Positions 26,101 to 56,601 of a DNA stretch of 64,000 nt are shown here, one piece after another (position 1 is the stretch's first letter; every line of letters starts with the position of its first letter). This DNA comes from a virus (Duplodnaviria; Caudoviricetes): the IMG/VR virus record IMGVR_UViG_3300045594_000287, positions 42,939 through 106,938 of that record; one strand, given 5' to 3'. The notes beneath the pieces are model-generated. The model made no database searches. It was not told the origin of the DNA and saw nothing but the letters and a program-made list of their open reading frames with translations. The translations under genes were made by a program, and so were the position numbers.

Positions 26101-28168
26101 CACAATAGATGGTGCAGAATCCGAGTTGGCAAGATATATTATTAAGCCGCCAGCAGGTATGGATATTGAATACGCTACAGATCAGTGTGGCCAGAATCTT
26201 ATCTGTGAAAACGATGGATTCAATAAGCTTTGGTATTCCAATGTAGATTCCATTTTATCCATAACAGCCAATGGCGTAAGTGTACCTGTCAGTGAATATT
26301 TCTTCTTACCAAAAGAAGGCATCCTCGTATGGACTTCTTCGAAATATCATGGAAACACGATCCAGGTTCTCTATTCCTATAAAGTCCCAAAGTACATGGT
26401 ATATCGCAGTATAGAGGCTCTCTACGATGTAATCGGATATAGCATAGAAGCTTACGCTGCGCTAAATAAAGACCCTGTAGTGCTTACTGACATGCACAAT
26501 GGTGAAATTAGAGCAATAGATTTTGGAGGAAAAACTGCCGATAAAATCCTGGCCAAATGTACGAACAGAAATTATCAGGTCACAATAACCGGATCAATGG
26601 TACGCACGGATCTTGTAAGTGATAAAGTAAAGGCTATTGCAAAAACAGGATATTACTACGATGATGGCAAGGAATATTATCTATTTGGACATTTACACTC
26701 CGAAGAGATTTCAAAGTACTCCAACATAGAACTTCACAACGTTTCCGATATAGAAGATGAACTTGAATTCATGCAGAAATCAACAAATCATCTCCTTGAC
26801 ACGTATATGCAGGGAGACCGAGAAGACGATATGTGTTTCGTTGACTTCAAGGCCCATAAGGAAATTGACGGCATTAGCCGGCTTGAATCAACAACTGCTT
26901 GCGACAGCTACAATTCTTGGAACGATTTCAATGTAGATATCAGCCTTGTCGAATCTAACGATGGACATGCGATTAAATTTTTGCCAGAAGAAGACGATGC
27001 GTATGCCATCATGGAAATATCGAACGTAGTCAAAAAGAACTCAATCATAACCTTTGTCACGACTGGTTCTGTAATTGCCAAGATCATGCGAGAAGTAAAA
27101 GCCGACGGCGACAGTATGTCAAAATCAATCTTTTCAGAACACTACGGAGACGTCCAGAAACAAGATGAATATTCATATTTCATCTTCGATGATAATACAG
27201 ACTTATCCTATCGTTACTTCTTGATGATTCAGGGGAGCGGGACGATTGATTGTATTATTGCCAAAGACTATGTAGCCGAGGAGAGCGTAAAACTCATACA
27301 TGAAAAGCAACTAGGCGTGCTTGGTTTTAATGTTGAAGAAGCTCTAGTAAAAAACTCCAAAGTCAATATGAGTTTTGACACCCAATATAATGTGCTCGAC
27401 AACCTCGAGCTGGATAAAGCCGGCCGGCTGAGAACAGGATCAAATGTAGATTATGGTGTAACAAAACTGTTTGATTCCAGGCTTCATATGGGAGAAAGCA
27501 AAAACATCGATATCGTCATAAAGAAAAATGCTTTCTATTCTGAGGGGAAACAGGGGACGATAGTATTCTCTGATATTTATCTTCGTAACTATCAAGCAAT
27601 TACCGGACTGTATGTGAAGGTAAATGATGTAATTATTGACAAGATGAATAACTTCAACATCAGAGCATACATGAAAACATCCCTAGATGAATCATACAAC
27701 TCTGTAGAATACAGTCGTAAGACAAATCTCCTGGCCATTTACAAATCAAAGATAGCACCTTATCTACAGATTGAAGTAGAAATGCCAGCCGATAGAGTAA
27801 TAAATAACATAGAGATTTATGCAAGATATGCAGAGACCGGTGGCGGCCTCTTCATTGAAACGTATGATTCCGGCACATTCCTGAGCAAAGTATATGACAC
27901 CATGCAGAGCGCTAACTACAAACTTGTAGGATTAGACGGAACAGCTAAGAAGCTTGACCGTATTTCACTGAGCATGAGAGGCTGCAGATGGGACGACAAC
28001 GGACATGAAGTATGGACAGACTGGTATCCAATGAAACTTAGGGATGATCTCACGATCGACAGCGAAGGGCACTCATTTGATGGATATCAACTATTCCAAT
28101 TCATGATAGACCTGGATCATAAAGATGCAGAAATCACAATTAAAGATTTCATTCTCGAGGTGATTTGA
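23171..28168 (+). CDS. Large baseplate wedge/structural protein (1665 aa)
   Basis: WNIFDEFA..GL.RY.DETN..L..R..NST.KGL.NAI wedge-type motif; follows the J-like gene; beta-rich composition. Confidence 0.6.
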   Translation: MLSARNTFLNLAKKFPKWMDVHKRPLKSVGGKYLQSIVEEQNDIQSALNDFESDFFLVSYIGRENDIVAIVYVIPVGDVAIDMIVPAVSVTFDTREFLLSPGKFALIQNGFLILHPDATPKDLKVRYSYNGNEYGGLLTKQYIWNIFDEFAMFSGLSRYEDETNADLLKRCLLAFRNQTNSTEKGLKNAIINSVENYLPITKDQITFEALDENNLTIEDDDFGTLYEKLAQFNQDIFRTKKWDMDTWEHNFKQLEWVPHIWDAKIETYQDGTGQGNDIQVQLTSNSKDELTDVEAYGYVKSSVSIDEYTRKKSIRKKITLNLEQYKDELKATSVGYRITATDLLKIDPQSISIKSMTKTTGQTVQYLSDIVTDHGDATIVRRDQVLETGTYRLKFIPKNNFSDMSISKATYKSPNGSTKDLRIESGRFKRNGNVIRDTDVLLHATNTNQCCSYSKITNSPEGFMLEAGETEGEFSIDVTDMGGHPVTFEDSCIVSDITQSQSYVKSNGFDLTSENVLSATTQDMTPTLDIDIDCVSLSFDFLKSVKAEEQGSATVIIKVDGKVDEVNSGLWTGARTYNRKFSKLSRVQIHIQKAGMSPISFGNFKASRYEIAMSLEHGDFIHTPFATLIPNLKDVQRNILHVKIKTYSIYSPIVKYVHIGASLQGVSYDLTGLQLDAGGSLDIDSTCRVELYRMEDGRSLLLNGDYITKPLYRNDTDESVLLSLDVSAFETIEKSSMPISKTVYKGNMTSYVTLYPGETEESITITGKTYTSQESHTLAYLLGITTDEDVYVSKGASGFIVYNTKNLDERMETIPRSRFNSSADTFSYEGLPDTMSAWFSIEDTVIQTNKLQTIFDTTYITPLKGTEYIAYNTTKLLSSSMSNVQIVDVFYPLLDTSKLLLYRIEPDAAGTLSSTVLFEKEIDGKEVYEDWSFGRKKNGIRIQADLDYKNSSNYAVDETQVDDYYVISNNIELKDKYTIDGAESELARYIIKPPAGMDIEYATDQCGQNLICENDGFNKLWYSNVDSILSITANGVSVPVSEYFFLPKEGILVWTSSKYHGNTIQVLYSYKVPKYMVYRSIEALYDVIGYSIEAYAALNKDPVVLTDMHNGEIRAIDFGGKTADKILAKCTNRNYQVTITGSMVRTDLVSDKVKAIAKTGYYYDDGKEYYLFGHLHSEEISKYSNIELHNVSDIEDELEFMQKSTNHLLDTYMQGDREDDMCFVDFKAHKEIDGISRLESTTACDSYNSWNDFNVDISLVESNDGHAIKFLPEEDDAYAIMEISNVVKKNSIITFVTTGSVIAKIMREVKADGDSMSKSIFSEHYGDVQKQDEYSYFIFDDNTDLSYRYFLMIQGSGTIDCIIAKDYVAEESVKLIHEKQLGVLGFNVEEALVKNSKVNMSFDTQYNVLDNLELDKAGRLRTGSNVDYGVTKLFDSRLHMGESKNIDIVIKKNAFYSEGKQGTIVFSDIYLRNYQAITGLYVKVNDVIIDKMNNFNIRAYMKTSLDESYNSVEYSRKTNLLAIYKSKIAPYLQIEVEMPADRVINNIEIYARYAETGGGLFIETYDSGTFLSKVYDTMQSANYKLVGLDGTAKKLDRISLSMRGCRWDDNGHEVWTDWYPMKLRDDLTIDSEGHSFDGYQLFQFMIDLDHKDAEITIKDFILEVI

Positions 28169-30315
28169 TGTTCGAACCAAACAGCAGAATAGAACGTGTT
28201 GATAATGGCATCCGCTTTTACGAGCAGGACATACTCTGCTCTTCATATATTTTCGAGGGCAATCTGGTAGTCGATGTAAAATTCGACTACCTAGCTCCCG
28301 GTTTTGGAATTGTTATAGCAGATGATAACGACAAAGGATTTATCGACTCAAAGTATGCCTACTTCTTTAAGCTCGGAATAGACTCATTCAAGATATACGA
28401 ACGGCATATGAATTCAGTAGACAACCCGCAGACAAACTCATGCATATTTGCGCCTGGAGACAACAAGCTGAATCAGCATATAGCATTAGAGATAGGCAAT
28501 ACGCATGTCGCAATGAAGCTCATTCGCAGCAACAATGACGGTGTCGACGATACAATAGAACTTGGTTCATATGATTTCAAAAATGAGTTTGGACGATACC
28601 GGGTCGGAATATATTCCAATGCTGGAAACGTCGTACGCTCTCTGACATTCAAATCAGGAGCTCCTAATAACTGGAGAACCAGTATCAAAAATACCTTTGG
28701 CGGACGCATTGCATTCATGCAAGATGGTTTCGAGTTCGAAAACTGCGCACATGATGCAGAGATCGAGCAGGAAGACGTGGACTTAAAGGCCGGGACATAC
28801 TTCATGGATTATAAAACATTCAATGTAAATGGTAAGTTCGACATCGAATGTTACATATTCCCATCCAAGATGTCGCGAGTAGAAGATAAGCAATTTGAAG
28901 ATCCTAAGAAACAGCTGCTGAAAAAGGATGGCAGCTTTACCATCGATAAGGATATGAAGGTAAACGTAAAATTCAAAGGGACATATGGAAAAATCACAAA
29001 CATCTGTATGAAAGATAATCGAGATAGTTCTTTTGTCAGAACTGAAGGAGCTCCTATATCCAATGACGGCAGCTGGATAGCCGTAAGCTTAACGGGGGTA
29101 CGTTCGGTAGAATGGACTGGCATAATCACAAATACCCCAAAATGGTCCGACCTGACAAAGCCATGTCCATATGCGATATTTTCTACAAGCAACATAACAG
29201 TGACAAAAGAAAAAAGCGATATCACTTTCGGCAGTTACTTCGACTTCAAATATACAGTTGACATTGGGATGCTAACGATAACGGATCCGGCGACCGGTCT
29301 GTCGCACTCCATCGATGCGCCGCTATCTGCGGCAGACAACAATACTATAAAAATCTTCCAAAATATCACCGCGGTAATTACAAAGTTCGTTATTACTGAT
29401 CACAACGGAAGAGAGAACAGCGTTCTCTTTTCAAAAGGATTTCATTCTTACGTGCCAGGATCAATCAACAGTCCTATAATCATCACATCAAATAAGGGCG
29501 CAGCACTCGATCTTTCGGCGGCTTATCGGGAAGTTGTACTTCCACAAGTTAAGATTGAACTTTTCAACCTGAGCAAACCATTGGAGTTATCCGAACACAT
29601 CGTTAGTTCATTTAGCGAAATCGAATTGTATGGTATTCCACATGGGGTTACGGTGTCACCACAAGAAACCGAGATCAGCAAATATGCTCCAGGAGCAATC
29701 AGAATCTCGGATGAAAAATATGTGGCCAACGGAAATGTGATAACTCTTGATCAGACTACTCGAGAAAAGTTCAGATATATCGCTGCCAGGTATATAAGTG
29801 CAGAGAATTATAGTTACCAGTTTACAAATGTAGAACGAGAGTTGTTTTCCAGTTCGCAGAAGCGATTCATCGTATCGAAAAAAATTGCTAAGTCAAGTGA
29901 TGCAGTAAATGTATATGGTATACCAGAGTCTGCAGAGATATGTGAAGATCGTTTCTTTAGGATCCCTCAAAAGACGATGACGCACTCAATTGACCTATAT
30001 GCAGATAAATACGACGCATTGCCCGCCGCAGCGTATACAGTATTGAAAGAGATGAACGAGATCGTAATCGATCCTTTCTACAAAAAGAAGTATTGCAAGT
30101 TTATAATCGATTACGACAAGGCGGACAGCTATTCGATCAATTTCTCGAGCGACATATCACAATACGAAATTGATGTAATGTCGACCGATTCTCGAGTAAC
30201 ACTTTCATACGACATGTACGACGATGGCAGTGTGAATGATTATATCAAGACCGATATAGTTCCTGATAAAAGTAAGTATATCGTGCTCAAGAGAAAGAGG
30301 ATGAAAGAGAATTGA
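28165..30315 (+). CDS. Putative baseplate/virion structural protein (~716 aa)
   Basis: Overlapping start (TTG 28165 or ATG 28168) after GAGGTG; beta-rich; operon context. Confidence 0.5.
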   Translation: MMFEPNSRIERVDNGIRFYEQDILCSSYIFEGNLVVDVKFDYLAPGFGIVIADDNDKGFIDSKYAYFFKLGIDSFKIYERHMNSVDNPQTNSCIFAPGDNKLNQHIALEIGNTHVAMKLIRSNNDGVDDTIELGSYDFKNEFGRYRVGIYSNAGNVVRSLTFKSGAPNNWRTSIKNTFGGRIAFMQDGFEFENCAHDAEIEQEDVDLKAGTYFMDYKTFNVNGKFDIECYIFPSKMSRVEDKQFEDPKKQLLKKDGSFTIDKDMKVNVKFKGTYGKITNICMKDNRDSSFVRTEGAPISNDGSWIAVSLTGVRSVEWTGIITNTPKWSDLTKPCPYAIFSTSNITVTKEKSDITFGSYFDFKYTVDIGMLTITDPATGLSHSIDAPLSAADNNTIKIFQNITAVITKFVITDHNGRENSVLFSKGFHSYVPGSINSPIIITSNKGAALDLSAAYREVVLPQVKIELFNLSKPLELSEHIVSSFSEIELYGIPHGVTVSPQETEISKYAPGAIRISDEKYVANGNVITLDQTTREKFRYIAARYISAENYSYQFTNVERELFSSSQKRFIVSKKIAKSSDAVNVYGIPESAEICEDRFFRIPQKTMTHSIDLYADKYDALPAAAYTVLKEMNEIVIDPFYKKKYCKFIIDYDKADSYSINFSSDISQYEIDVMSTDSRVTLSYDMYDDGSVNDYIKTDIVPDKSKYIVLKRKRMKEN

Positions 30316-32084
30316 AAATCAACTTGCCAAAGCATGATATAAAAGAGGTAGAAAACGTAGGGATCAAAGAAATCCCTCTCGCTTATATTGATACTCATGA
30401 CGATGTGTATCATGCAAACGTAAACGTAGAGAAACAATTTGTAAAGTCACAAAGCAAGAAAATTAGGCCGTATGACGAGTTTGAAGATCCGGACATGTAT
30501 TTCTATGATAGCAACAATAAACTCGTCACAAACGTAGCCCTGAAGCGTCTGGGCAACCGTTATGTATACGAACCGACTTCGATTACTGAATTTACCCCGG
30601 AAACATTTAGCTGCGATATCACAATCCAGAGAAATATGTCGTACTCTAATGATAACGATATTGACCTTTCGGTTTGTGTTGTTGAGCAGAGCAACGTGCT
30701 GGAGCTATCAGGCGACCTGATATCAATCTGTGGAGACGCACCAAAGCGAGGGATATGTCCATCACACATCACCGTGAATGGAGGGTCGATGAGCCCATAT
30801 TCCTTTACTGCATCGGACTATAAAACATGCGACTTTATGTTCATCGATTCTTTTGACGGGAAACATATCCGTTCAGAAAATAACGAAGAACTCATCGATA
30901 TAGATACCATATTAAACGAACATGTAAATGTATGGCTTAGCGTATCTTCATTCGGTGACATGCTGAGAAAATGTGATGACTCTTTTAAATCGCTTACCAT
31001 AGCTTCTCCAATGCTCTATCAGAATAAAGAATACTTATCATCTAAGCCTGATAAAATGTCTATCTTCGACCGGTCGAAAACGTTCGAGGCCTACAGCAAG
31101 AAGGATTACGAATACGAATTTTTATGTGATGCAGTACTGATTCTTCATAAGGCTGGTTGCGGCTTCGTGATTGTATCTCCAAGAGCTTTCTTTGATGATA
31201 TAAACCAGTACGCCGGCATAGTATACGAAGCGATGATGAATGTATATTGCCGAGGATATTACAAAGCATCATCCCCTAAGACATGGATCACTGATTATCC
31301 TATTGATTCTATAGCATACCAGACTGCTCCATTAAATAAAAACCATGGGCGTCTCAACATAAATGATATCCTGGTGAGCAATGGAATTAAGGGGAAAACG
31401 GCCTTTCGTATTGTATCTATCAAATGCAGCTCAAACAATATCCTGTTCAATGGCATCGATTCGTCCGGAAATATGAGCTTCAAAAAATTGATAACAAATA
31501 CAGATCCGGTAAAAAAAGAAGGACAAGTTTCGTATTACACCACAAAACAAACCGTAATTTACTATATGCAGGAAGATATAAATCTGATTGAAGTTCCATT
31601 CGATGTAAAGTACCGGGCAGACGGCAGTACAGTATATATAATAATAAACCCATATCATAGCTCTGCTTCTAAAATTAACTCTGATGACCAACAGGAGCTG
31701 AAGATCCCAAATAACAATGGAGTTTATTTTATCTGTACCAAACCGAGCAAACCAGATTTGTCTAATGTATATAGTTTAGTCCTAGATTCCGAGTACCAGC
31801 CAGACGTTCACGGCTATAAAATGGCCACGGTAAATATCGTGACCACGCCGCAAACAAAGCTTTATGATATCCGAATCATGGGCGGAGGGCTGCCAAAGGT
31901 GCTACCGGACGACTACAACATGATAGATATCGGAAATATCAATGGACGCCCATACAGGGTCGGATCAACATCGATTATACGCCTGCCCAAAAAATATGAA
32001 CCATACAAGGAGAAGATACTCGATGCCATAAACATGCACGCGGCTTCAGGAGATTATCCTTTATTGGTTTTTGAAAAGGAGTAA
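30312..32084 (+). CDS. Putative baseplate structural protein (590 aa)
   Basis: Coupled TTG start; C-terminal DIRIMGGGLP..DIG..G.PY..IIRLP segment; operon context. Confidence 0.5.
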   Translation: MKINLPKHDIKEVENVGIKEIPLAYIDTHDDVYHANVNVEKQFVKSQSKKIRPYDEFEDPDMYFYDSNNKLVTNVALKRLGNRYVYEPTSITEFTPETFSCDITIQRNMSYSNDNDIDLSVCVVEQSNVLELSGDLISICGDAPKRGICPSHITVNGGSMSPYSFTASDYKTCDFMFIDSFDGKHIRSENNEELIDIDTILNEHVNVWLSVSSFGDMLRKCDDSFKSLTIASPMLYQNKEYLSSKPDKMSIFDRSKTFEAYSKKDYEYEFLCDAVLILHKAGCGFVIVSPRAFFDDINQYAGIVYEAMMNVYCRGYYKASSPKTWITDYPIDSIAYQTAPLNKNHGRLNINDILVSNGIKGKTAFRIVSIKCSSNNILFNGIDSSGNMSFKKLITNTDPVKKEGQVSYYTTKQTVIYYMQEDINLIEVPFDVKYRADGSTVYIIINPYHSSASKINSDDQQELKIPNNNGVYFICTKPSKPDLSNVYSLVLDSEYQPDVHGYKMATVNIVTTPQTKLYDIRIMGGGLPKVLPDDYNMIDIGNINGRPYRVGSTSIIRLPKKYEPYKEKILDAINMHAASGDYPLLVFEKE

Positions 32085-42938: not shown

Positions 42939-43001
42939 GCTGGTATCCCTCGCATCAATAGCAGTGCGAGGGATATTGGTATCTATGGAGGTTTTTACAC
43001 C

Positions 43002-45762: not shown

Positions 45763-46707
45763 ATGGCTATATTAAAATGGAAGAATGCGAAAGACTGGAT
45801 CTCATTTTATGTTGATTCTATCGCACTCCGTTTGAGAAAAGATAAGAACCTCAGTGACGTGAACGATGTCGTGGCAGCCAGGAACAACCTGGAGCTCAGT
45901 GGAGTGAATAACCACACCCATTATCACGACGACCATTATATGCCGCTGATAAATCGTGAAGAGAAATCACGTACCACGGAACGAGACTCTTCCTCGTTCT
46001 GCATCACAGGAGATGTCGAAGCTCCTTTTGTCGGCTTCACTAATGATATGAAAGTGATGTTGCAGGCGAAGAATGTCATCGCTACTACCACAATGATCAA
46101 TGATGGAAGCAATATTCCAGTTAAACTTACCGGTGCAAGTAATACAGGAATACAACAAATCCGTACTACGGGGGTGACTGCTGATGCGGCAGGAAACCTC
46201 ACTTCAACCAGCGTGCAGTCAGGTTCTATAAGCGGAACGGTAGCCAATTTCAGCACAGTAAATGCTCAAAAAGTATACAATGCCATTTGGAATGACTATG
46301 CTGAATTCTTCCCCCGCGGTGGAGAAACCAACCCTGGCGATCTGATTATGCTTGACATTAAGAGCAAGAAAGAGCAATATATAAGAGCAACGAAAGATGC
46401 GCAGCTCATTGTCGGAGTCCATAGTGATGAATTCGCCATGCTCATCGGCGGAGAGAAGCCGGCTGCTGGCGAAGATTATTTCAAGACGAACATCGAGAAG
46501 TATATCCCCGTAGCCTTGGCTGGCCGCGTCCACGTCAACTTCACTGGCGCGTCTGCAAAGGGCGGGAAAGTAGTTCCGAGTGATATCCCGGGCTATGCAC
46601 GTCTTTATAATCCAGAGAAAGATACTCTGGATAGAGTAATTGGATATCTCGTTGAATCCGATGACTCCACGGGGGAAAGAAAGCTTAAGATCAAAATCGG
46701 GAGATAA
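45763..46707 (+). CDS. Tail fibre/spike protein with a C-terminal intramolecular chaperone autocleavage domain (Peptidase G2-like)
   Basis: LRKDKNLSDV..ARNNL and HYHDDHY; VYNAIWNDYAEFF..PGD..VGV.SD..PVALAGRV.V. Confidence 0.7.
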   Translation: MAILKWKNAKDWISFYVDSIALRLRKDKNLSDVNDVVAARNNLELSGVNNHTHYHDDHYMPLINREEKSRTTERDSSSFCITGDVEAPFVGFTNDMKVMLQAKNVIATTTMINDGSNIPVKLTGASNTGIQQIRTTGVTADAAGNLTSTSVQSGSISGTVANFSTVNAQKVYNAIWNDYAEFFPRGGETNPGDLIMLDIKSKKEQYIRATKDAQLIVGVHSDEFAMLIGGEKPAAGEDYFKTNIEKYIPVALAGRVHVNFTGASAKGGKVVPSDIPGYARLYNPEKDTLDRVIGYLVESDDSTGERKLKIKIGR

Positions 46708-46709
46708 TT

Positions 46710-47690
46710 ATGGATCTGATCATTAAACCTACGAAGGCTTGCAACTTCGCTTGCACCTTCTGCTCTTCTAATAAAATATCGAAGGCATTAACACTCGACC
46801 TGGAAAAGGTATTTCCGATCCTTCTCGAGAATGATGTCCAGACGATCATAGTAAACGGCGGCGATCCACTGATGGTCCCGCCGGCTTATTATGAGAGGCT
46901 TATCAATTTCCTGGACGAACATGACATGAAGACTACTATATCTTTCACGTCGAATCTCTGGGATTTCTTTTTGCATCCAGACAAATGGGAAAAACTATTC
47001 AAGGATGAACGAATGGGAGTCTGCACTTCGTTCCAATATGGAGGAGAACGAAGGATAGCTGATGGCCAAGAATTCACGGAAGAACTGTTCCGTAAAGTGT
47101 TCTCATTATTCGAAGACAGGATTGGATACAAGCTCTCATTCATCTCTGTCATCACCAGGAACAACGAAGAACGAGTACTCGATACCGTAAGGCTTGCGAA
47201 AGAACTCGGAACGGAATGCAAGATAAACCCAGCTTTCAAATCCGGACGTAGCGAGGAGTTCTACCCCCTATATAAGGCGTATGGAAGATACCTCGATATC
47301 ATCAAAGCTGGTCTGGCAGAATATGAGTTCAACAGCAAGAACCTCAAGCAGCTGTTTGGGTCAAGCAACGTGTGCTGCCCATACAACAGGAATTGCTACA
47401 AGACCATCCGTTGCATAAGTCCAGACGGACTGATCCATAGCTGCGGGGCCTTCAATGACGACCATTACATGAATGCCGCCCAGGGGAAGAAGACATACTG
47501 CCTAGGCCAATATGACGAGAAAGAGCTGGCAAGGGATTTCAAGATGCTGAAGCCGGCATGCCTTTCCTGCGACATGTTCCGGTTCTGCAACTCATGCTAC
47601 AAGCAGATCGCTGACATCACGAGCAGCGGCACGACGGAAGAACACTGCACAGGCATGAAAGCATTAGAGGGGAGACTGAAAAGCATATGA
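46710..47690 (+). CDS. Radical SAM/SPASM-type protein 1
   Basis: CNFACTFC, GGDPL and a C-terminal Cys cluster (CCP..C..C..C..CLSC..CNSC..C). Confidence 0.9.
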   Translation: MDLIIKPTKACNFACTFCSSNKISKALTLDLEKVFPILLENDVQTIIVNGGDPLMVPPAYYERLINFLDEHDMKTTISFTSNLWDFFLHPDKWEKLFKDERMGVCTSFQYGGERRIADGQEFTEELFRKVFSLFEDRIGYKLSFISVITRNNEERVLDTVRLAKELGTECKINPAFKSGRSEEFYPLYKAYGRYLDIIKAGLAEYEFNSKNLKQLFGSSNVCCPYNRNCYKTIRCISPDGLIHSCGAFNDDHYMNAAQGKKTYCLGQYDEKELARDFKMLKPACLSCDMFRFCNSCYKQIADITSSGTTEEHCTGMKALEGRLKSI

Positions 47691-48514
47691 CACTGTACAT
47701 AAAAGTCACGGAAAGCTGCAACTTGCATTGCCCCTTCTGCTACATCAAGCAGAAGCCTGGTACGATAGATATGGATTCGATCGACAGGGCAATGCAAGAG
47801 CTGCAGCCAAATCGAATCATCTTCCATGGAGGAGAGCCGCTCCTATATCCAAAGATCATCCTGGAGACGATCAAGCAGTATCCGGATATAGAATACTCGG
47901 TCACGTCGAACCTCATGGTTCCATTGACCGATCAGGTACTCGAAGTGATCAAGAGATGCAAGATAGCTACAAGCTATTCCGTGGACAGGTTCACCGAAGA
48001 GCAATTCGAAGATTTCAAGGCGGCCGTGAAGATGGTAAGTTCTTACCAGCCGATAACCCTGCTTGTCACGTTATCCGAAGCCCAGCTGCAGCAGCCTCCA
48101 AAAATCCTGTCTGATACAATTAAGGAACTGGAGATCAGTAATATAACATTTGAAAGGCTTTTTACAGAACGCAAAAGCAAAGAGCTGTACGAACAAACGG
48201 ACGAATATCTGCTGGAAGCATTCAAGCATGTCGATACCGAGAAGAACAACATGTTGCATTGGATGGAAGACGCGATAAGGAGCAACGGCACCGTATTCAA
48301 CCACGATTGCGATGTGCAGACATTGAATCCAGATGGTTCTCTTTGCGGATGCCCGAACCTCTATCGAACGAGAATCCACGATCAGCGGAAAAGGGAATGC
48401 TTGTATTGCGATATATATCAATATTGCAAAGAAGATTGCCCGAGCTTCGGTGGCATATGCTGTTTTCCTAAGAAGACCTTCCAATCAATATTGAAAGCGA
48501 GCGTGAATAAATAA
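47687..48514 (+). CDS. Radical SAM/SPASM-type protein 2
   Basis: CNLHCPFC, FHGGEPL and GCP..CLYC..C..DCP..C. Confidence 0.9.
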   Translation: MTLYIKVTESCNLHCPFCYIKQKPGTIDMDSIDRAMQELQPNRIIFHGGEPLLYPKIILETIKQYPDIEYSVTSNLMVPLTDQVLEVIKRCKIATSYSVDRFTEEQFEDFKAAVKMVSSYQPITLLVTLSEAQLQQPPKILSDTIKELEISNITFERLFTERKSKELYEQTDEYLLEAFKHVDTEKNNMLHWMEDAIRSNGTVFNHDCDVQTLNPDGSLCGCPNLYRTRIHDQRKRECLYCDIYQYCKEDCPSFGGICCFPKKTFQSILKASVNK

Positions 48515-49065
48515 TGAATACAGGCGACACTATAACCCCTGAGGGTTTAGCATATCATATCAATGATAACTTGAAAGAGAAGATTCAGGACTATGTGCAT
48601 TGGTGGCTCAGCGCGCCACCGAACTTCGATGACAACTGGGATAAGATCTTGCAGAATACAGACAACCTGGCTGCGATAACCAGTGACATGATCGGGAAGA
48701 AAGGCGAATGGCTCAATGCAGCTTCATTCTATAAGAATATCCAGGCTACCGTTAACTCCTGGTCAACTGTCCGCCCATTCAGCGTGATCGGATATAAAGG
48801 CAACAACACGAATGGTGGAACGCCTACCTATACGAAAGTGTATAGTGAGATGCGCTATGCCAACATAAAGGTAGCACATGAAGACATACTCGGCCGGGCC
48901 GGGCAGCCTTTCACAGCCGGCAGCATCGCTTCTGCAGAAACCATGAACCAGCTGATAAACAACATCTTCAGGCAGTGGAAAGATCTTCCTATCTATACCT
49001 ATGAATCAAAGAACTGTCACGGCAACTGCCATGATAACTGCCATGGATCTGGCGGCTGGCGTTGA
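48514..49065 (+). CDS. Putative radical-SAM substrate/precursor protein with a C-terminal (NCHx)3 tail
   Basis: 183 aa ending SKNCHGNCHDNCHGSGGWR; all its Cys residues are in this tail; TAATG-coupled to rSAM 2. Confidence 0.65.
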   Translation: MNTGDTITPEGLAYHINDNLKEKIQDYVHWWLSAPPNFDDNWDKILQNTDNLAAITSDMIGKKGEWLNAASFYKNIQATVNSWSTVRPFSVIGYKGNNTNGGTPTYTKVYSEMRYANIKVAHEDILGRAGQPFTAGSIASAETMNQLINNIFRQWKDLPIYTYESKNCHGNCHDNCHGSGGWR

Positions 49066-49084: not shown

Positions 49085-49786
49085 ATGACAAAAGATTCCG
49101 TACTCACTGCTCTTCCATTCACCGAGGAGCAGCTCGATAAATACTTAGATGACATGGACAAGCATAGCTTCTATATTGAATTCAGTGATTGCAAACTGAA
49201 AGGCAACAAGCTGCTGAACTACATATACAACTCGGGAATGGAATGTGATCTGCATCTGACCGATTTTACTTCGAACGATCTCGAGGGGTTCGTGAAAGAC
49301 TATATCTGTACAGACAAGATCGTCAACATCCCTGCTGTGAATGATATCTGGTGTGATATCCTCCTGTATCGAATAGAGAAAGAGATATTCGATACGAATA
49401 AAGAAGAGAAAGAGTTTATAGAAAGATTTTATGAAGATCACGGTGACCTGATTGATGAGTTGTTTGATATATTGTTTAGCTTAAAAGCTCATCTTATTGC
49501 TGCCATCGTCAACGATGATGATGGAATGATTGAGGGGAAAGAATCACGCAGCATGAATGAGGTTGGCCTTAACTTCGTCACGCTCAGGAACTCTGGAGCA
49601 TTCTGGAACGTCCTTACCAGGATAGACTCCCTTGGGCTTCCCGTGTACAACTACAAGGATTTCCAAGAATTCAGCTACGATGGAAGAAAGATACGCCACA
49701 ATTTCCTTGATGAATTCGGACCATTCTCCATCTTAAGCATATACATCAAAGACTCTATAGAAAGGGCTGGAAGTGCCGATGAATAA
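49085..49786 (+). CDS. Acidic hypothetical protein of the rSAM cluster (233 aa)
   Basis: Start reassigned to ATG 49085 after GGAGGGG; no recognisable catalytic motif. Confidence 0.6.
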   Translation: MTKDSVLTALPFTEEQLDKYLDDMDKHSFYIEFSDCKLKGNKLLNYIYNSGMECDLHLTDFTSNDLEGFVKDYICTDKIVNIPAVNDIWCDILLYRIEKEIFDTNKEEKEFIERFYEDHGDLIDELFDILFSLKAHLIAAIVNDDDGMIEGKESRSMNEVGLNFVTLRNSGAFWNVLTRIDSLGLPVYNYKDFQEFSYDGRKIRHNFLDEFGPFSILSIYIKDSIERAGSADE

Positions 49787-51023
49787 AACTATTCCTATCA
49801 GACAGTACAAGATCGATTACGAGACCTTATCCAAAGAGTTCCCCGAGATCATCCCTGCAGACACAGAAGCTTCTATCGATGGCTTCATATCGAAAGGGAA
49901 ACTTTACCTGAAATCCTCTGCGGATAAAAGTAACCCGCTTGTTATTGTCTCAAACGATCATACATTTGACCATAAGTTCCTGGATAAGGAAGATACCATA
50001 ACATTGAAGCTGGCTGATCCTGCCAAGTCATTCTCCACTATGCCAGAATATGGTTTCACGATAGATGACAATATCAGCGTGCATCAGTTCACAGTAGATA
50101 AAGATATGGCTGATAAACTTATCAGCAATAATGGTTTCCATTATTGGGGGATGGACAAGCAGCTGCATGTCAATGCCCACACATACAAACCAGATACGGT
50201 CATCGAATATGCGAATCGTATCCTCGAGAAAGGATATTCTTATCCGATCGTCTGTTATGTCGATACGACCATCCAGATAGAGAAGAATGATTATATCCCA
50301 TACCTGCATGAGCTGCTGGAAATCGGAAACGTCCCTTTTCGGATAATGACCTACAAGGACATCAGGTATCTGATGCATGTGACTCCAGAATTGTATACGA
50401 TAATATACGGGATTCCCAGTAATAAACGCTATCAGAAAGAAGATTCCGTTGACATAAGCAGCTTCCTCTTGACCAATTACAGCGATAAGCGCGACGCAAT
50501 CAAGAACTACCAGATAAAGGTAAGCAAGCCTGAGGACTCGGAATATGCATATATCGACAACCCGTTTGATCAATGCTTCTCTTACTATTTCATTTTTGAT
50601 TCCGACCATGCTTTCCTCAACGATCGGCTCATAACCAACATCATCAACAGGAATGACCTCGATTATGTATCCTGGGATGGAGATGAGTCTGGAGACATGG
50701 CAGCCGGCATGCATCTGAAGAATGCATTATATGGACGCACTCCGGTCAAGCAGATCCATCATGCCCATCCAGGTGAGGCAAAGGACACGGATGCTTTCGA
50801 GGAATATTGCGTGGAACATCATATCGACCTTGGTCTGTTTGATATGTTGTCATTTGGATACTCGAACGATAAGATCGAATTTACGAAATCTATCCTGGAT
50901 AAATTCAAGGCGGATCTCATCGTTATCGAGAATGACCAGTCAGCACTCTTGGGAGTAGAGATGCTGCAAGACCTTCTCGACAAGGACGACCTTTGTATCA
51001 AATATCTGAAACTTAAGAAGTAG
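49779..51023 (+). CDS. Hypothetical protein of the rSAM cluster (414 aa)
   Basis: Overlapping ATG after GGAAGTG; no recognisable family. Confidence 0.6.
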   Translation: MNKTIPIRQYKIDYETLSKEFPEIIPADTEASIDGFISKGKLYLKSSADKSNPLVIVSNDHTFDHKFLDKEDTITLKLADPAKSFSTMPEYGFTIDDNISVHQFTVDKDMADKLISNNGFHYWGMDKQLHVNAHTYKPDTVIEYANRILEKGYSYPIVCYVDTTIQIEKNDYIPYLHELLEIGNVPFRIMTYKDIRYLMHVTPELYTIIYGIPSNKRYQKEDSVDISSFLLTNYSDKRDAIKNYQIKVSKPEDSEYAYIDNPFDQCFSYYFIFDSDHAFLNDRLITNIINRNDLDYVSWDGDESGDMAAGMHLKNALYGRTPVKQIHHAHPGEAKDTDAFEEYCVEHHIDLGLFDMLSFGYSNDKIEFTKSILDKFKADLIVIENDQSALLGVEMLQDLLDKDDLCIKYLKLKK

Positions 51024-51034
51024 GGGGAACGAGC

Positions 51035-51985
51035 ATGATTGTATTCATTAAGCCGGTAGAGGCATGTAACCTCAAGTGCCTGCATTGCTACAATTGTGCC
51101 AACAGCAACTCCATCGACTTCAAAGCTCTTGGCTCTTTCCTTTCCTGTGTGAATAGGGAACAGCCGAAGAGCTTTTTTGTCTTACATGGCGGAGAGCCGC
51201 TGCTGGCAGACACGGATAAGACATTGGACTTGGTCAAGGGTTTCCCTGATAATCCATGGAGGATAACCACCAACCTTACTATGCCGCTCACAAGGGGCAG
51301 GATGGAGATCATCTCCTTGATGGATGAGGTCAGGACGTCTTTCGATATCGGTATCCGCTTCGGAACACTCCACAATCTCATGATGTGGAAGCACAACATG
51401 CAGGAACTGGTAGCAAATGGCATAAACGTCTACGTGAATATATGCTTCACGAAACAGCTGTTAAAAAAAGATCCAAGGAAACTGATGGACATGATGCACC
51501 ACCTTCATATAAAGACATTGAGCTTCGAACGGATCTGTAAGGCCGGCCGAGCGGCTGAAGGCGTGGACTTCATTCCATCATATGAAGATGTCGATGAATG
51601 GTTATGCAAGCTGTACCAGGTAGCAAAAGATTTTAAGGACGTGAAAGTAAGAGAGTTCGAAAACATTGCCTTTGGCATCATGAAAGAGTATAATTACTAC
51701 AGAGGCAAGGAGTGCTGCATCGCCACGCTTACCGTGAATGCCGATGGCACTATTGGCCGCTGCCCAAACGATGCGCAGGTATCAGTTTATGGAAACATGA
51801 AAGAACCGGAAAAGGCCATTGCGGCCAAGATGTGTGCCGGATGTCAAAGGGTAAAGACGGAATGCCTTTCATGTAATTCATTCGAAGATTGCCAAGGGGG
51901 ATGCCCCGCAGCAGAATGGCAGGGGAGCTCCTGCCCATACCCGAAAAAGCTATCCCAATTGATCAAGGAGGATCTCGGCCGATGA
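51035..51985 (+). CDS. Radical SAM/SPASM-type protein 3
   Basis: CNLKCLHC, LHGGEPLL and CC..GRCP..CLSC..CQGGCP..CP. Confidence 0.9.
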   Translation: MIVFIKPVEACNLKCLHCYNCANSNSIDFKALGSFLSCVNREQPKSFFVLHGGEPLLADTDKTLDLVKGFPDNPWRITTNLTMPLTRGRMEIISLMDEVRTSFDIGIRFGTLHNLMMWKHNMQELVANGINVYVNICFTKQLLKKDPRKLMDMMHHLHIKTLSFERICKAGRAAEGVDFIPSYEDVDEWLCKLYQVAKDFKDVKVREFENIAFGIMKEYNYYRGKECCIATLTVNADGTIGRCPNDAQVSVYGNMKEPEKAIAAKMCAGCQRVKTECLSCNSFEDCQGGCPAAEWQGSSCPYPKKLSQLIKEDLGR

Positions 51986-52839
51986 ACATACTACCTAGTT
52001 ACGCTTGCAACTTTCATTGCCCATTCTGTGCGATTCACCAGCAGGATTGCGGGCAGCTGCTCAATCTTGACTATGCCAAGCAGCAGCTGTCTTCGATTCC
52101 CGGCATAAGGCAGATAGACATCCTCGGAGGGGAACCATCGCTATTACCAGATGAATACTTATCAGAGCTGATTGACATATGCACATCAAGACTTAATGGC
52201 AAGCTGCCAGGCATGTATACCAATCTCAGTCGTGTATCTCCATTGATCGACAGGGTCAAGCTCACTGTAAGTTTCGATCCTGGGATGAGAGAAGCAAGGA
52301 ACAGCGTTATCCAGAACATGCTCATGTTGGATAATGAATTCGATATCAACACGATTGTCAGTTCAAAGCTCGTAGCTCTGGGTGCCGGCCATATAGAGAA
52401 GATGCTATCGAGATTCCGTATGGCAAAGCGAATATGCTTGAGCTCTTTCACGCATTTTCCAGGCATGCCAGATTATACCCCAGCTCCTGAGGATATGCTG
52501 AAATTCATGAAAGATATCCTGTCATTGGATGAGCCACATCGTATCCACTTCTCTCCTATATCATCTATAAGAGAAGGATCACGAAAAAGCTATGCAGCAG
52601 AGGAATCTGCAGAGATGCTGCCAAGTGGCAAGTATCGATATGCACTTCGAGACGTCACGAGCGCAAAAGAGTTCGAGACATTTGACGCCGTCAAGAAATA
52701 CCGATACAACAATGAATCTTATCCTGGCGAATGCAATAGCTGCAGATACAGAGGACAATGCCTGAATAAATACCGGACAGAAGCTGGATGCTATTGGGAC
52801 AAGAAGATCATGGAGACAATAGAGGAGAGGCTATCATGA
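51982..52839 (+). CDS. Radical SAM protein 4
   Basis: Start reassigned to ATG 51982 (ATGA overlap, SD AAGGAGG); SYACNFHCPFC, ILGGEPS and C-terminal CNSC..C..C. Confidence 0.85.
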   Translation: MNILPSYACNFHCPFCAIHQQDCGQLLNLDYAKQQLSSIPGIRQIDILGGEPSLLPDEYLSELIDICTSRLNGKLPGMYTNLSRVSPLIDRVKLTVSFDPGMREARNSVIQNMLMLDNEFDINTIVSSKLVALGAGHIEKMLSRFRMAKRICLSSFTHFPGMPDYTPAPEDMLKFMKDILSLDEPHRIHFSPISSIREGSRKSYAAEESAEMLPSGKYRYALRDVTSAKEFETFDAVKKYRYNNESYPGECNSCRYRGQCLNKYRTEAGCYWDKKIMETIEERLS

Positions 52840-53717
52840 ACATATACGCAAGCTATGCCTGCAATGCAAATTGTGCATTCTGCTCACTGCATGACCGCCC
52901 GGGTAAACGGATTGCCCTGGATTGGCTAGAGCAGCAACTGGAAAAGCACGAAGACCTATGCGAGGATATCAACATCCTGGGCGGGGAACCATCCGTACTG
53001 CCACTTGATTATCAGGAGCGCCTGGTCGACATCTGCACGAAGGCGGCAGGAGAGAAGCCGTATTACATCACGAACCTGCTCAACGTGAGCCCAGTCCTCG
53101 GGAAGACCCGGCCGATCGTCAGCTATGACTTCGGCCTGCGGGAGGACAACGTCCAGACGATGAACAACATCCTGCAGTTGGACATGCCGTATTCCCTGTC
53201 TACGATCCTCACCGACGAGCTGATAAGCCGTGGGAGCAAGAAGCTGCTCCGCTTCGTCGACATGCAGCCGAACTGCGAGCGGATCGATCTCGTGATGTAT
53301 CGCAGCGGCACCACGGAAAAAGACTTTACTCCTGATCACGAGGAGCTCATGAAATTCGTATCTGAAGTCATGGATCATCCGAAGATAAATCTTACGCCAT
53401 ACTCGGCTATGAAGGGGTGGACAGACAACTCGTTCGCAAACGTCGCTGGCCGCTTCGGCTTTCTGCCGGACAATAAGTATGGAGTCCGCATCGATTATGG
53501 TCAACAAGGGTACACTCCATTCGACTCTTACGATGACGCTTTAATTTATTACATCAAGCGTATCAATGAGATCAATCGGACGAAACTATGCGGCAGCTGT
53601 CCATACAAGGGGCGATGCTGGTGCGTGGGCGGATATGAGAATGAGGTATGTCACGGTGATCGTGAAATGATGGAACTATTCGAGAGGAGATTGAAAGATG
53701 TTCATCCACATGTTTGA
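52836..53717 (+). CDS. Radical SAM protein 5 (paralogue of 4)
   Basis: Start ATG 52836 (ATGA overlap); SYACNANCAFC, ILGGEPS and C-terminal CGSC..CWC..C. Confidence 0.85.
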   Translation: MNIYASYACNANCAFCSLHDRPGKRIALDWLEQQLEKHEDLCEDINILGGEPSVLPLDYQERLVDICTKAAGEKPYYITNLLNVSPVLGKTRPIVSYDFGLREDNVQTMNNILQLDMPYSLSTILTDELISRGSKKLLRFVDMQPNCERIDLVMYRSGTTEKDFTPDHEELMKFVSEVMDHPKINLTPYSAMKGWTDNSFANVAGRFGFLPDNKYGVRIDYGQQGYTPFDSYDDALIYYIKRINEINRTKLCGSCPYKGRCWCVGGYENEVCHGDREMMELFERRLKDVHPHV

Positions 53718-54450
53718 TAAGATCTATGCAGTCAACAGTACATGCGAACCGCAGGACAGCGTTGATATCCGGAAACGATTTATCGACTACCACGGAATGA
53801 AATGCGAGCATCCATTCCTTGAGACATTGTACGATGAGATCATGGACAACCGGCTCCCAGGTGGCATAGAGGACCGCAGCGTGAACGTGCTCATCGTTCC
53901 TGACGAGCAGTACAACGAGCTGATGCAGGATTACTGCATCTACCTCGGTCTCGACTATAAAGCTTACAGCTTGATCAAATGGCACAGCAGTTTCTGTATT
54001 TGTTATCTCGACAACGTCGCAGAGACAATAAGCCAAGGATTCCCATATCCGGTCATCAAGAAAGAGAACTTCATCGTCGGCAAGAAGAAAATCCGACGCG
54101 GCTATGAGCATTTCCCCGTAGAGTTTGCTGTCAACAGCAATGAGAAGTGGGCAAATGACAAGCGGGACAACTGCAGGATACATGAGGTATTCGAAGTCAT
54201 AAAGGATTATCAGTATAAATGCTACCGAGAAGGCATACCATGCCCGACATGTCTCAAGAACTTCAGCGCGAGTCATCAAAGCGCAAAAGCACTGAAAGAG
54301 CCGGCGGTGATGGATGCCTGCTTATCTGCTCTTAACGATCTCGACATAAGCATCGAGCATAACAGAGGTTACAACAGGTTCCATGGGTATAAGTACAACT
54401 TCCCATTGGAAAAATATCTTAAGAAGGAAGGATATCGCATCGATGGATAA
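53698..54450 (+). CDS. Hypothetical protein of the rSAM cluster (250 aa)
   Basis: SD GAGGAG; overlaps both neighbours; contains CPTC. Confidence 0.55.
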   Translation: MFIHMFDKIYAVNSTCEPQDSVDIRKRFIDYHGMKCEHPFLETLYDEIMDNRLPGGIEDRSVNVLIVPDEQYNELMQDYCIYLGLDYKAYSLIKWHSSFCICYLDNVAETISQGFPYPVIKKENFIVGKKKIRRGYEHFPVEFAVNSNEKWANDKRDNCRIHEVFEVIKDYQYKCYREGIPCPTCLKNFSASHQSAKALKEPAVMDACLSALNDLDISIEHNRGYNRFHGYKYNFPLEKYLKKEGYRIDG

Positions 54451-55756
54451 TTGGAAAGAATATCTAAAGTTCAACTTGAAAGCACAAGACACACCGAGAC
54501 TGTTCGACGCGACGAAACTGGATGGCAGGCAGTTCAACGTGAACCATAAGAATGTAGCCTGGACCGCTGCCATGTATTTCCACGCGGACCCAGATGTATG
54601 GGAACTGCCAGCTAAGAACTACTTCGTCCGGATATGCTTGGCCTATTACATCAGTCGGAGATACCGGGAATCATTCTATGACCTGCTGAACGACAAAGAT
54701 CTGCTGCCATATGACGACCGCTATTCCGGCACATACGACGAGGACAAGGAGACCTACGACAAGATACTGGATATCACGTATCCAGGGTGCTTCGAGACAT
54801 TCCTTGGCTATCAACATACGATCGACGTATTCGGTTATCTATACGATCCGATCATCTCAGATCACTCGCTCACCATCGGATACAATCTGACCGGGCAGGA
54901 ATTCTTCGACACGATCTGCTTCAAAAAGAGATACATCGAGGAGTTCTTCTTCTCTCTTACCCATACGATGCCGAAACAGAAACTGGACACGGAAGATGTC
55001 CTGGCTCAATTGAGAGACTGTGATACCTATGGCATCCCGGGCAACCTGCTTCTCAATACAGAAGCATCAGAAGGAGCGTGGCAGCAGCTGATACAGTCTG
55101 CTATGGATGCCGTACCGCTGCAAGCAGTCACCGTGCTCACTATCGATTACGCAGAGAAGGTGAAGAAGGCCTTCCCAGATCTACAGGTACACATCTCTAC
55201 GCATGGTGCAACGAAGCTGAAAGCCGAAGACCTTGGCTCAGGATATGTAGACGTCCTGAATGTAGCTGAGCCATACTATTACAGTGAGCAGCAGCAGGGT
55301 CTTATCCGCAGATGCAAGGAGCTCGGGATCCGCGTGAAATACATTGTCAACCGTGGATGTGTGAACAATAAGCATTACCTTATGAGCGAGCTGGTCGGCC
55401 GGCCCATCATGTGCTGTCAGAATTACCAATGCAAGCAGCTGCTAAAAGAAGTGCCATGGTTGGACCTCGTTCGCACGAACCTGTACAAGGAGATGCTCCC
55501 ATATTACGATTTCAAGTACCTGAAGATATCAACCAGGGAATTGTCCAACGAAAAGGTAAGGCAGGAACTTGAATATTGGACAAGCACGGTGCCTACCAAA
55601 AAAGTTGGGCAAATAGAGATCACCCCGGACAACTACAACACTTTCATCGTATGGTGCAAGACTAAGGCCTCATGCAAAGGTAATTGTTCAAGATGTGATA
55701 AGTGCAAGAAGATTTACGAGAGGTTGATGAAACAATGTCAGTTAAAGAACGAGTAG
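54443..55756 (+). CDS. Unknown N-terminal domain fused to a U32-family (Fe-S, UbiU/TrhP/RlhA-like) domain
   Basis: GIPGNLLLN, FPDLQVHIST, VKYIVNRGC..H..CC..C, LKISTRE and C-terminal CKGNCSRCDKC; start reassigned to ATG 54443. Confidence 0.65.
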   Translation: MDNWKEYLKFNLKAQDTPRLFDATKLDGRQFNVNHKNVAWTAAMYFHADPDVWELPAKNYFVRICLAYYISRRYRESFYDLLNDKDLLPYDDRYSGTYDEDKETYDKILDITYPGCFETFLGYQHTIDVFGYLYDPIISDHSLTIGYNLTGQEFFDTICFKKRYIEEFFFSLTHTMPKQKLDTEDVLAQLRDCDTYGIPGNLLLNTEASEGAWQQLIQSAMDAVPLQAVTVLTIDYAEKVKKAFPDLQVHISTHGATKLKAEDLGSGYVDVLNVAEPYYYSEQQQGLIRRCKELGIRVKYIVNRGCVNNKHYLMSELVGRPIMCCQNYQCKQLLKEVPWLDLVRTNLYKEMLPYYDFKYLKISTRELSNEKVRQELEYWTSTVPTKKVGQIEITPDNYNTFIVWCKTKASCKGNCSRCDKCKKIYERLMKQCQLKNE

Positions 55757-56601
55757 ACCTTATCTCCAACAATAAAGGTCTATCTATAAACACTCCGATA
55801 ACGACAGCTAAGATAGAGGTAAGCGGTATCTGCACGCTTCAATGCAAGTTCTGTTACAACAAAGAGATGAAGAAGAACAATGAGCGGCAGAAGCTGATGA
55901 GTATGGATGACTTCCATAAAGCACTGGACTTTATCAGCCGGATTAAGACATTGAAAGAAGTCGGCCTGTTCTATATGGGGGAGTCTGGTATTCATCCTCA
56001 GCTTGCAGAGATGTATAAAGAACTGAAAGATCGCGGGTACTTCACCTACCTCACAACGAATGCAACATACATAGACACTATCCTGCAGGCTATTCCATAT
56101 ATCGACAGTCTGAAGGTGTCGTGGAATTATACTGGCCACAAAGACTTTGAAGAAAAGACAGGCTGCCCAGAGTCTACGTATCACAAAATCCGAAAGAATA
56201 TCACATACCTCTATCAGGAATGCCATCTGCAGGGCAAGCAACTCGCGATCTCAACAGTACTCGATCGTGATAAAGAGGACTATTTTAATTCGCTGATCAT
56301 GCTTCCGCGTGATGAGCACTATTGGATTCCGCTGCAGACCCAGGGTGGCCTAAACGAGTTCGGTGAAGACGGAGTGGTCGGCGAAGATGAACACAAAGTT
56401 TCTCCTTTCCCGTGCTGGTCACTGTTCAAGGGAATCTATATTGATGCCGATCTTATGATAAGGGCCTGCTGCTACGGCCATACTGAAAAGCACATCATAG
56501 GAAGATGTGAAAAAGGCTTCTATAAAACTCAATATAAGATGAAACAGCTTGAAGGAAAAATCCCTGAAATGTGCAAAGAATGCCTGCGCAGCCAAGCCTA
56601 A
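55735..56601 (+). CDS. Radical SAM protein 6 with a C-terminal SPASM/twitch-like domain
   Basis: CTLQCKFC, YMGES, LTTNA and PCWSLF..ACC..CKEC; start after GAGGTTG. Confidence 0.85.
   Translation: MSVKERVDLISNNKGLSINTPITTAKIEVSGICTLQCKFCYNKEMKKNNERQKLMSMDDFHKALDFISRIKTLKEVGLFYMGESGIHPQLAEMYKELKDRGYFTYLTTNATYIDTILQAIPYIDSLKVSWNYTGHKDFEEKTGCPESTYHKIRKNITYLYQECHLQGKQLAISTVLDRDKEDYFNSLIMLPRDEHYWIPLQTQGGLNEFGEDGVVGEDEHKVSPFPCWSLFKGIYIDADLMIRACCYGHTEKHIIGRCEKGFYKTQYKMKQLEGKIPEMCKECLRSQA

Follow-up and report, generated by a model that had tools for sequence, protein, structure and literature searches.

A near-invariant Cys-His tail on a family of phage proteins encoded beside radical SAM enzymes

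The 64,000 nucleotide stretch of phage DNA analysed here, in the following called the window, covers positions 42,939 to 106,938 of the IMG/VR record IMGVR_UViG_3300045594_000287. The record is 106.9 kb long and its completeness is estimated at 45%, so the phage is jumbo-sized. Within the window, among genes encoding radical S-adenosylmethionine (rSAM) enzymes, lies the gene of a 183 amino acid protein, P0001 (48514..49065, + strand), that ends in a threefold repeat of Cys and His. What is this tail for, and do the neighboring enzymes act on it? We favor, with moderate confidence, the reading that P0001 belongs to a family of virion-associated proteins whose tail is a substrate of the co-encoded rSAM enzymes. 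The evidence consists of the family-wide conservation of the tail, the synteny, a predicted fold that ends in a disordered tail, and the presence of one homologue in virus particles.

The tail of P0001 and its conservation

Translation of 48514-49065 confirms the original prediction of a 183 amino acid protein with a threefold C-terminal repeat that holds every Cys. The protein ends N167-C-H-G-N-C-H-D-N-C-H-G-S-G-G-W-R183, and its three Cys residues (168, 172 and 176) are all found in this tail. The tail is encoded at 49012..49062 (+ strand) as three N-C-H-x units (49012-49047) followed by S-G-G-W-R. The 12-bp DNA repeat predicted at 49012-49047 is also present. These 36 bases make up three 12-bp units with synonymous differences (TGT/TGC, CAC/CAT), indicating that it is the protein repeat that is maintained and that the DNA was not duplicated recently. 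From composition, 1.4e-4 occurrences of C-H-x-x-C-H-x-x-C-H are expected in the six-frame translation of the window; one was observed.

NCBIfam and Pfam contain no model that P0001 matches. Among 1.84 billion representative proteins, an exhaustive HMMER search gave 36 matches, two of which are repeat proteins matched by short body stretches only and were left out. Searching phages for the C-H-x-x-C-H-x-x-C-H pattern, as had been proposed, was productive: a back-translated motif scan of IMG/VR gave 64 confirmed loci. Proteins with this tail, here called CH-tail proteins, are also encoded by cultured jumbo phages, namely Pseudomonas phage pPa_SNUABM_DT01, Agrobacterium phage Atu_ph07, Sinorhizobium phage Phosso and the RSL2/RSF1/FLC/SURPRISE13 group. 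The cultured family members were located by rSAM synteny and motif scan. With P0001 and three typical members of the family as queries, tblastn gave no match in 50,697 phage records, because the low-complexity filter and the divergence of the bodies hide the family. In a search of 185,579 species genomes, two of the matches listed were confirmed, both on phage-like contigs in metagenome-assembled genomes. The CH-tail family and its gene cassette are nearly confined to phages. A word-index search, in itself weak evidence, found no longer or fused family forms.

The HMMER representatives, the IMG/VR loci and the cultured jumbo phages together gave 96 distinct proteins for a family logo. This logo shows a beta-strand-like stretch followed by C-H-[A/S]-[S/N]-C-H-x-[S/N]-C-H-G-S-[R/G]-G-[R/W]-R-COOH. 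The mean column identity across the whole family alignment is 23%, yet C and H in the tail vary hardly or not at all. Position four of each unit is occupied by Ser or Asn, with rare exceptions at single positions. In 87 of the 96 proteins exactly six residues follow the third C-H, and every one of these 87 ends in Arg. Conservation of the tail in homologues had been set beforehand as a point on which the prediction could fail; it held, with a near-invariant tail on bodies that are only about 23% identical. Both suggested readings of the tail, as H-x-S/N and as C-x3-C, fit the logo, as the fourth unit position is Ser or Asn. The bodies are poor in Cys, at 0.39% compared to 1.05% in neighboring open reading frames (ORFs), and 55% of them have no Cys at all.

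The subfamily of P0001, which is in the minority, has Asn-rich units and ends in GSGG[W/R/F/Y]R. A few family members have four or five units; one with five C-H-x-x units, encoded at 9983-10564 of locus L010, ends in GW. Another protein, P0031, has an aberrant acidic tail with an extra Cys and lacks the terminal Arg.

Predicted fold and virion association

Using the family alignment, AlphaFold2 modeled P0001 with a predicted local distance difference test score (pLDDT) of 87.6 and a predicted TM-score (pTM) of 0.81. In the model, three helices and three long strands extend to residue 168 and are followed by a disordered tail, in which pLDDT is 51 and falls to 37. The disorder predicted for the tail is as expected for an accessible core segment. 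A leader or a structural domain of about 165 residues had been proposed; the model supports a folded alpha/beta domain and argues against a short leader. The recurring G..I/L.A/P segments noted in the body are real. All three are located just before predicted helices, and two match the family-conserved columns GxxIxA and GxxI.

We did not find a solved fold matching the body. Foldseek gave no PDB match at E<=0.001, a profile search of PDB gave E>0.4, the best VIA-wide Z score was 4.1, and Atlas matches had TM<0.4. In BFVD the model matched family members only, among these a 178 amino acid viral protein (TM 0.76, E 2.5e-9) and a 296 amino acid protein of Atu_ph07, which has the length of gp170 (E 3.4e-5). 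Three proteins of 504-660 amino acids from one uncultured myovirus have the body fold in common with P0001 in BFVD (TM 0.44-0.57) and may, going by the models, represent fused or fibre-attached forms of the domain. The CH-tail proteins of the RSL2/RSF1/FLC/SURPRISE13 group constitute phrog_35144. P0001 itself gave no match to PHROG profiles at E<=0.01, whereas its relatives do match phrog_35144; the shared tail and predicted fold suggest that P0001 is kin to this group.

Evidence that the family joins the virus particle comes from Agrobacterium phage Atu_ph07. In brief, mass spectrometry of purified virions detected Gp170 (31.89 kDa) through 8 unique peptides that cover 35.16% of its sequence (Attai et al. 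2018, PMC6102473, Table S5). The mass calculated for the CH-tail protein gp170 comes to exactly 31.89 kDa, and for gp176 and gp177, too, calculation and table agree. Gp170 was found in gel fragments 1-9 and was most abundant in fragment 1, the top slice, which lies far above its own mass; other proteins of 30-32 kDa peak in fragments 7-8, and proteins of 117-137 kDa peak in fragments 1-2 (PMC6102473, Table S5). The adjacent rSAM enzymes gp171, gp168 and gp165 and the partner protein gp169 are not listed in the virion table (PMC6102473, Table S5).

The rSAM cassette and its enzymes

Synteny was counted over 60 distinct loci. The predicted link to rSAM genes was borne out: a gene with an rSAM motif, of the SPASM type, is found directly upstream of the CH-tail gene in 48 loci, and an rSAM-motif gene is found within two genes in 52. 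In 42 loci the gene directly downstream is a phrog_20767 gene recognizable by BLAST, hereafter the partner. The median number of rSAM genes within 9 kb is four. Most loci have the order (cupin)-rS3-CH-partner-X'-rS2-...-rS1-...-rS4, often followed by 2-oxoglutarate (2OG)-Fe(II) oxygenases. The window and three close relatives (L006, L008 and L010) have the order fibre-rS1-rS2-CH-partner-rS3-X-rS4-rS5-Y-(phrog_20737 fusion)-rS6. The position directly upstream of the CH-tail gene is taken by rS3 orthologues in most other phages and by rS2 in the window. The CH-tail gene and the partner gene form a fixed pair, and rS3 and rS2 both stay close to it. The window represents a variant of the cassette, with an Asn-rich tail ending in GSGGWR, with rS2 and not rS3 coupled upstream, and with no oxygenase recognized among its cassette genes.

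In some loci, one or two tandem short CH-tail genes (124-191 amino acids) directly follow a gene for a protein of 1,979-3,214 amino acids. The C-terminus matches phrog_22593 in both of the giant proteins scanned, and one of these also weakly matches a tail-fibre PHROG. Two tandem CH-tail genes (124-138 amino acids) after a giant of 1,979-3,140 amino acids were observed at L025 9588-10345, L029 10004-10833 and L039 6118-6935.

All large ORFs of the window are on the + strand, and the first 46 kb encode giant and fibre-like proteins. Two giant ORFs are located back-to-back at 2125-10776 (2,883 amino acids) and 10925-19192 (2,755 amino acids), upstream of the fibre/rSAM region. Directly before the cassette, 45763..46707 (+) encodes a fibre-like protein that shares only a C-terminal motif of about 35 residues with Atu_ph07 gp176 (pairwise E 0.02). 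In Atu_ph07, gp176 is a virion protein encoded a few genes upstream of the CH-tail gene.

Six genes of the window, starting at 46710, 47687, 51035, 51982, 52836 and 55702, encode an N-terminal CX3CX2C and match Pfam Radical_SAM or phrog_1802. At least rS1, rS2 and rS3 have C-terminal Cys motifs of the SPASM type. The rS1 enzyme (46710..47690, +, 326 amino acids) is 41-45% identical to rSAMs of cultured jumbo phages. The rS2 enzyme (47687..48514, +, 275 amino acids) has its CX3CX2C at residues 10-17 and a SPASM motif Cx2Cx5Cx3C; the stop codon of its gene overlaps the start ATG of the P0001 gene (TAATG), which would couple their translation. Downstream of P0001 follow the partner gene (49085..49786, +, 233 amino acids), a gene for protein X (49773..51023, +, 416 amino acids), which is conserved in window-type cassettes (L008, L010), and rS3 (51035..51985, +, 316 amino acids). 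The gene for rS4 (51982..52839, +) has an ATGA overlap with rS3, and rS5 (52836..53717, +) is a tandem paralogue of rS4. Protein Y (53698..54450, +, 250 amino acids) is likewise conserved in window-type cassettes. It is followed by 54443..55756 (+), encoding a protein whose N-terminal ~85 residues match phrog_20737 and are here fused to a Cys-rich C-terminal part. In other cassettes the phrog_20737 domain is a separate protein of about 135 amino acids beside 2OG oxygenases. A 'U32' label considered for the 54443-55756 protein had no support in sequence searches of Pfam, NCBIfam or PDB. The last rSAM gene, rS6 (55702..56601, +), has an uncertain start.

The model of the partner protein (pLDDT 85.7) has no convincing fold match, and the protein has no conserved Cys. 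A weak structural likeness to the rear half of the rSAM enzymes ChlB and anSME (Z about 4) was not borne out by a profile comparison with rS3 (probability 0.1%).

More than one kind of multi-rSAM cluster exists in jumbo phages, as seen in Ralstonia phage RP31 (L076), where 25788-30898 holds four rSAM-motif genes (ORF72-75) after the fibre-like ORF68-69 and no CH-tail gene. The PhiRP31 virion protein ORF78, encoded beside this cluster, was considered as a CH-tail protein and ruled out.

The NCBIfam models nearest to the window rSAMs are all peptide or protein maturases: PapB, DynA, DarE, YhhB, AmcB, anSME and HxsC. The closest solved relative, although distant, is the anSME 4K37, to which the rS3 profile aligns over its full length (E 6.6e-14). 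No window rSAM reaches any NCBIfam family cut-off, and the scores are far below. With the anSME model TIGR03942 (cut-off 349 bits), rS3 reaches 36.0 bits and rS1 31.1 bits. The best NCBIfam match of rS2 is PapB (NF047865), with 46.6 bits against a cut-off of 340, and spans residues 3-133 only, the N-terminal core. HxsC gives 19.6-23.9 bits against a cut-off of 267.9, and HxsB was not among the matches listed for the window rSAMs (the best 25 for two of the enzymes). Models of cyclophane synthases also stay below their cut-offs: YhhB at 35.1 of 445 bits, AmcB at 31.9 of 425, GrrM/OscB at 27.7 of 310, FxsB at 28.4 of 370 and XyeB at 18.2 of 450. The maturase model TIGR04115 (cut-off 350 bits) scores 14.6 bits at best, in the N-terminal core of rS2, and the whole phage record lacks a match at E<=1 to its target TIGR04114 (cut-off 20 bits). 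We found no RRE (leader-recognition) domain in the rSAM enzymes of the window. Judging from these profiles, P0001 and its cassette are outside the catalogued CXXX-repeat, His-Xaa-Ser (HXS), triceptide, ranthipeptide and anSME families. For the triceptide, HXS and ranthipeptide systems on which the original prediction drew, the tail fits H-x-S/N and C-x3-C in form, and the profiles give no match at family level.

The tail as a candidate enzyme substrate

Known systems nevertheless suggest what chemistry the tail could undergo. HxsA has five His-Xaa-Ser repeats and is matured by the rSAMs HxsB and HxsC with HxsD as their small partner (Li et al., Nat Commun 2026, PMC13128918). The mass change maps to an S-H-R-S-S unit (PMC13128918). 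HxsA is a whole protein with tandem, basic-rich H-x-S units, and the units of the P0001 family similarly read H-x-S/N with basic residues after them. However, HXS (TIGR03976-03979) is a bacterial antiphage defence system whose HxsA is exported and binds peptidoglycan, whereas the CH-tail gene sits in a phage late/fibre module, and the CH-tail family has an invariant Cys in each unit and only three units, placed at the exact C-terminus. The CXXX-repeat system (TIGR04114, TIGR04115, Pfam PF27846) resembles P0001 in having Cys at every fourth residue (C168, C172 and C176 in P0001), an rSAM/SPASM neighbor and a location near fibre genes. It differs in having tens of units where P0001 has three, and P0001 adds the invariant His and Ser/Asn. 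Atlas offers the sole link to this system, a weak lead at rank 24 with a score of 0.79.

In His triceptides an rSAM/SPASM enzyme joins His-C2 to the Cbeta of X3; examples are HaaB acting on H-A-A, YhhB on H-N-R and HtkB on H-T-K (PMC11499958). P0001 has this aromatic-X2-X3 arrangement with His three times, as H-G-N, H-D-N and H-G-S, and X3 is strongly conserved; an aromatic-C-to-Cbeta cross-link would take 2 Da from each unit. Triceptide precursors are leader-core peptides, whereas the CH-tail protein is a folded 20-kDa protein; the cassette enzymes have no RRE, and the Cys of each unit has no triceptide counterpart. The anSMEs (TIGR03942; PDB 4K36-4K39) are similar in being minimal, RRE-less rSAM/SPASM enzymes that act on Cys or Ser of a whole protein. 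The sulfatase motif they recognize is C/S-x-P/A-x-R, which is loosely echoed by C-H-G-S-R of the RGRR subfamily; the window tail reads C-H-G-S-G and lacks this Arg. Formation of formylglycine by an anSME-like enzyme was therefore rejected as an explanation for the window. PapB and CrpC are rSAM/SPASM enzymes that link regularly spaced Cys residues to nearby carbons. The acceptor pattern of PapB, Cys-x3-Asp/Glu, has no counterpart in the CH-tail. CrpC installs thioethers on the Cys-rich protein CrpA (PMC13692751), which is protein-sized like P0001; CrpC has an RRE.

The tail has three strictly kept positions per unit, a fixed distance to the C-terminus, an accessible location and a linkage to SPASM genes. 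From this we infer that it is an enzyme substrate on a particle-associated protein. We suggest that P0001 is a member of a small folded protein family that joins the virus particle, and that its disordered tail, (C-H-x-S/N)3 with a six-residue spacer ending in Arg, would be the substrate of minimal rSAM/SPASM enzymes. The likeliest enzymes to act on it would be rS3, rS2 or both, and the phrog_20767 partner may assist. The enzymes have no RRE; they would act on the whole protein, and the product would stay attached to the body, as for anSME, QhpD, CrpC and HxsB/C. The likeliest chemistry would be intramolecular cross-linking, by a thioether from Cys to a neighboring carbon, by a His-C2-to-Cbeta cyclophane on H-x-S/N, or by both.

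Several points weigh against this proposal. As no rSAM of the window reaches a family cut-off, the chemistry is not readable from homology. The gene order varies by subfamily, with rS2 upstream in the window and rS3 elsewhere, and this makes the cognate enzyme ambiguous. With three Cys and three His, a flexible tail would bind metals or form disulfides even if no enzyme acted on it. The Atu_ph07 stock was purified with polyethylene glycol only, and the list of detected proteins includes non-structural ones (PMC6102473). It should be noted that the loading buffer as described lists no reductant (PMC6102473), so that the gp170 at high mass could be linked by disulfides and not cross-linked by an enzyme.

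In a different explanation, the tail is left alone by the enzymes and binds metal (Zn, Fe, Cu or Fe-S) or forms disulfides, so as to anchor or oligomerize the protein in the virion, and the rSAMs act on something else, such as fibres, sugar decoration or DNA. We regard this as unlikely. A flexible tail with this many Cys and His is a plausible metal site, and phage fibres do use His-metal sites, as in the HxH of T4 gp37. Disulfides formed in a buffer without reductant could also put gp170 in the top fragment, and phage rSAMs are known to act in DNA hypermodification (PMC8989533). Metal binding would however leave unexplained why the fourth unit position is restricted to Ser and Asn, why the spacer has its length and why the terminal Arg is fixed. 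Nor does this explanation account for the rSAM gene adjoining the CH-tail gene in four fifths of the loci, or for the CH-tail gene never being found without the cassette. We consider it still less likely that the tail is a covalent staple, in which an rSAM-made carbon link from Cys or His joins the protein to a fibre or baseplate protein, comparable to capsid chainmail. Such a link would explain both the peak of gp170 in the top gel fragment and the short CH-tail genes directly after giants with fibre-like ends.

The presence of the Atu_ph07 homologue in virions argues against two further explanations. One is that P0001 is the precursor of a peptide made by the ribosome and modified after translation (a RiPP) or of a cofactor, with the ~165 residue body as leader or scaffold and the modified 15-17 residue tail cut off as a diffusible peptide or a redox or metal cofactor. 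Many tailoring enzymes clustered around one short motif would fit this, and a core of fixed spacing at the exact C-terminus recalls MftA and PqqA. But the body is predicted to be a well-folded, conserved domain, the enzymes lack an RRE, and we recognized no protease or exporter in the cassette of the window, which makes a released product improbable. The other, which we consider the least probable, is that the CH-tail protein is not a substrate but an accessory of the enzymes, such as an Fe-S cluster donor, an electron carrier or an assembly scaffold. The cluster demand of six Fe-S enzymes is high, clusters can be bound by Cys/His tails, and Fe-S assembly genes are also present in marine phages that have many rSAM genes (PMC5332604). 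Sequence and structure searches gave no similarity of the protein to IscU, A-type carriers or ferredoxins, and it is the protein, not the enzymes, that is found in the virions of Atu_ph07. An accessory role would also leave unexplained the short CH-tail genes located directly after a giant fibre-ended protein in some loci. A metal-binding or disulfide-forming end, a released RiPP or cofactor and an accessory role each account for less of the pattern than modification of the tail by the co-encoded rSAM enzymes does.

The rSAM/SPASM enzymes are known as maturases of small peptides and of a few cellular proteins. In the literature we found no paper describing the motif, the function of the cassette or the finishing of a virus-particle protein by rSAMs, and genome papers on phages with CH-tail proteins list the rSAM genes merely as accessory. 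Cultured carriers (Atu_ph07, pPa_SNUABM_DT01 and the RSL2/RSF1/FLC6/SURPRISE13 group) are available as test systems. Should the tail prove to be modified, four to eight Fe-S enzymes are spent on 16 residues of one virion protein by large phages from soil, plant-associated, marine and probably anaerobic habitats, which would imply that these residues have a chemically demanding task at or near the host-contact apparatus. Radical peptide chemistry would then also gain a new substrate motif and several new enzyme subfamilies.

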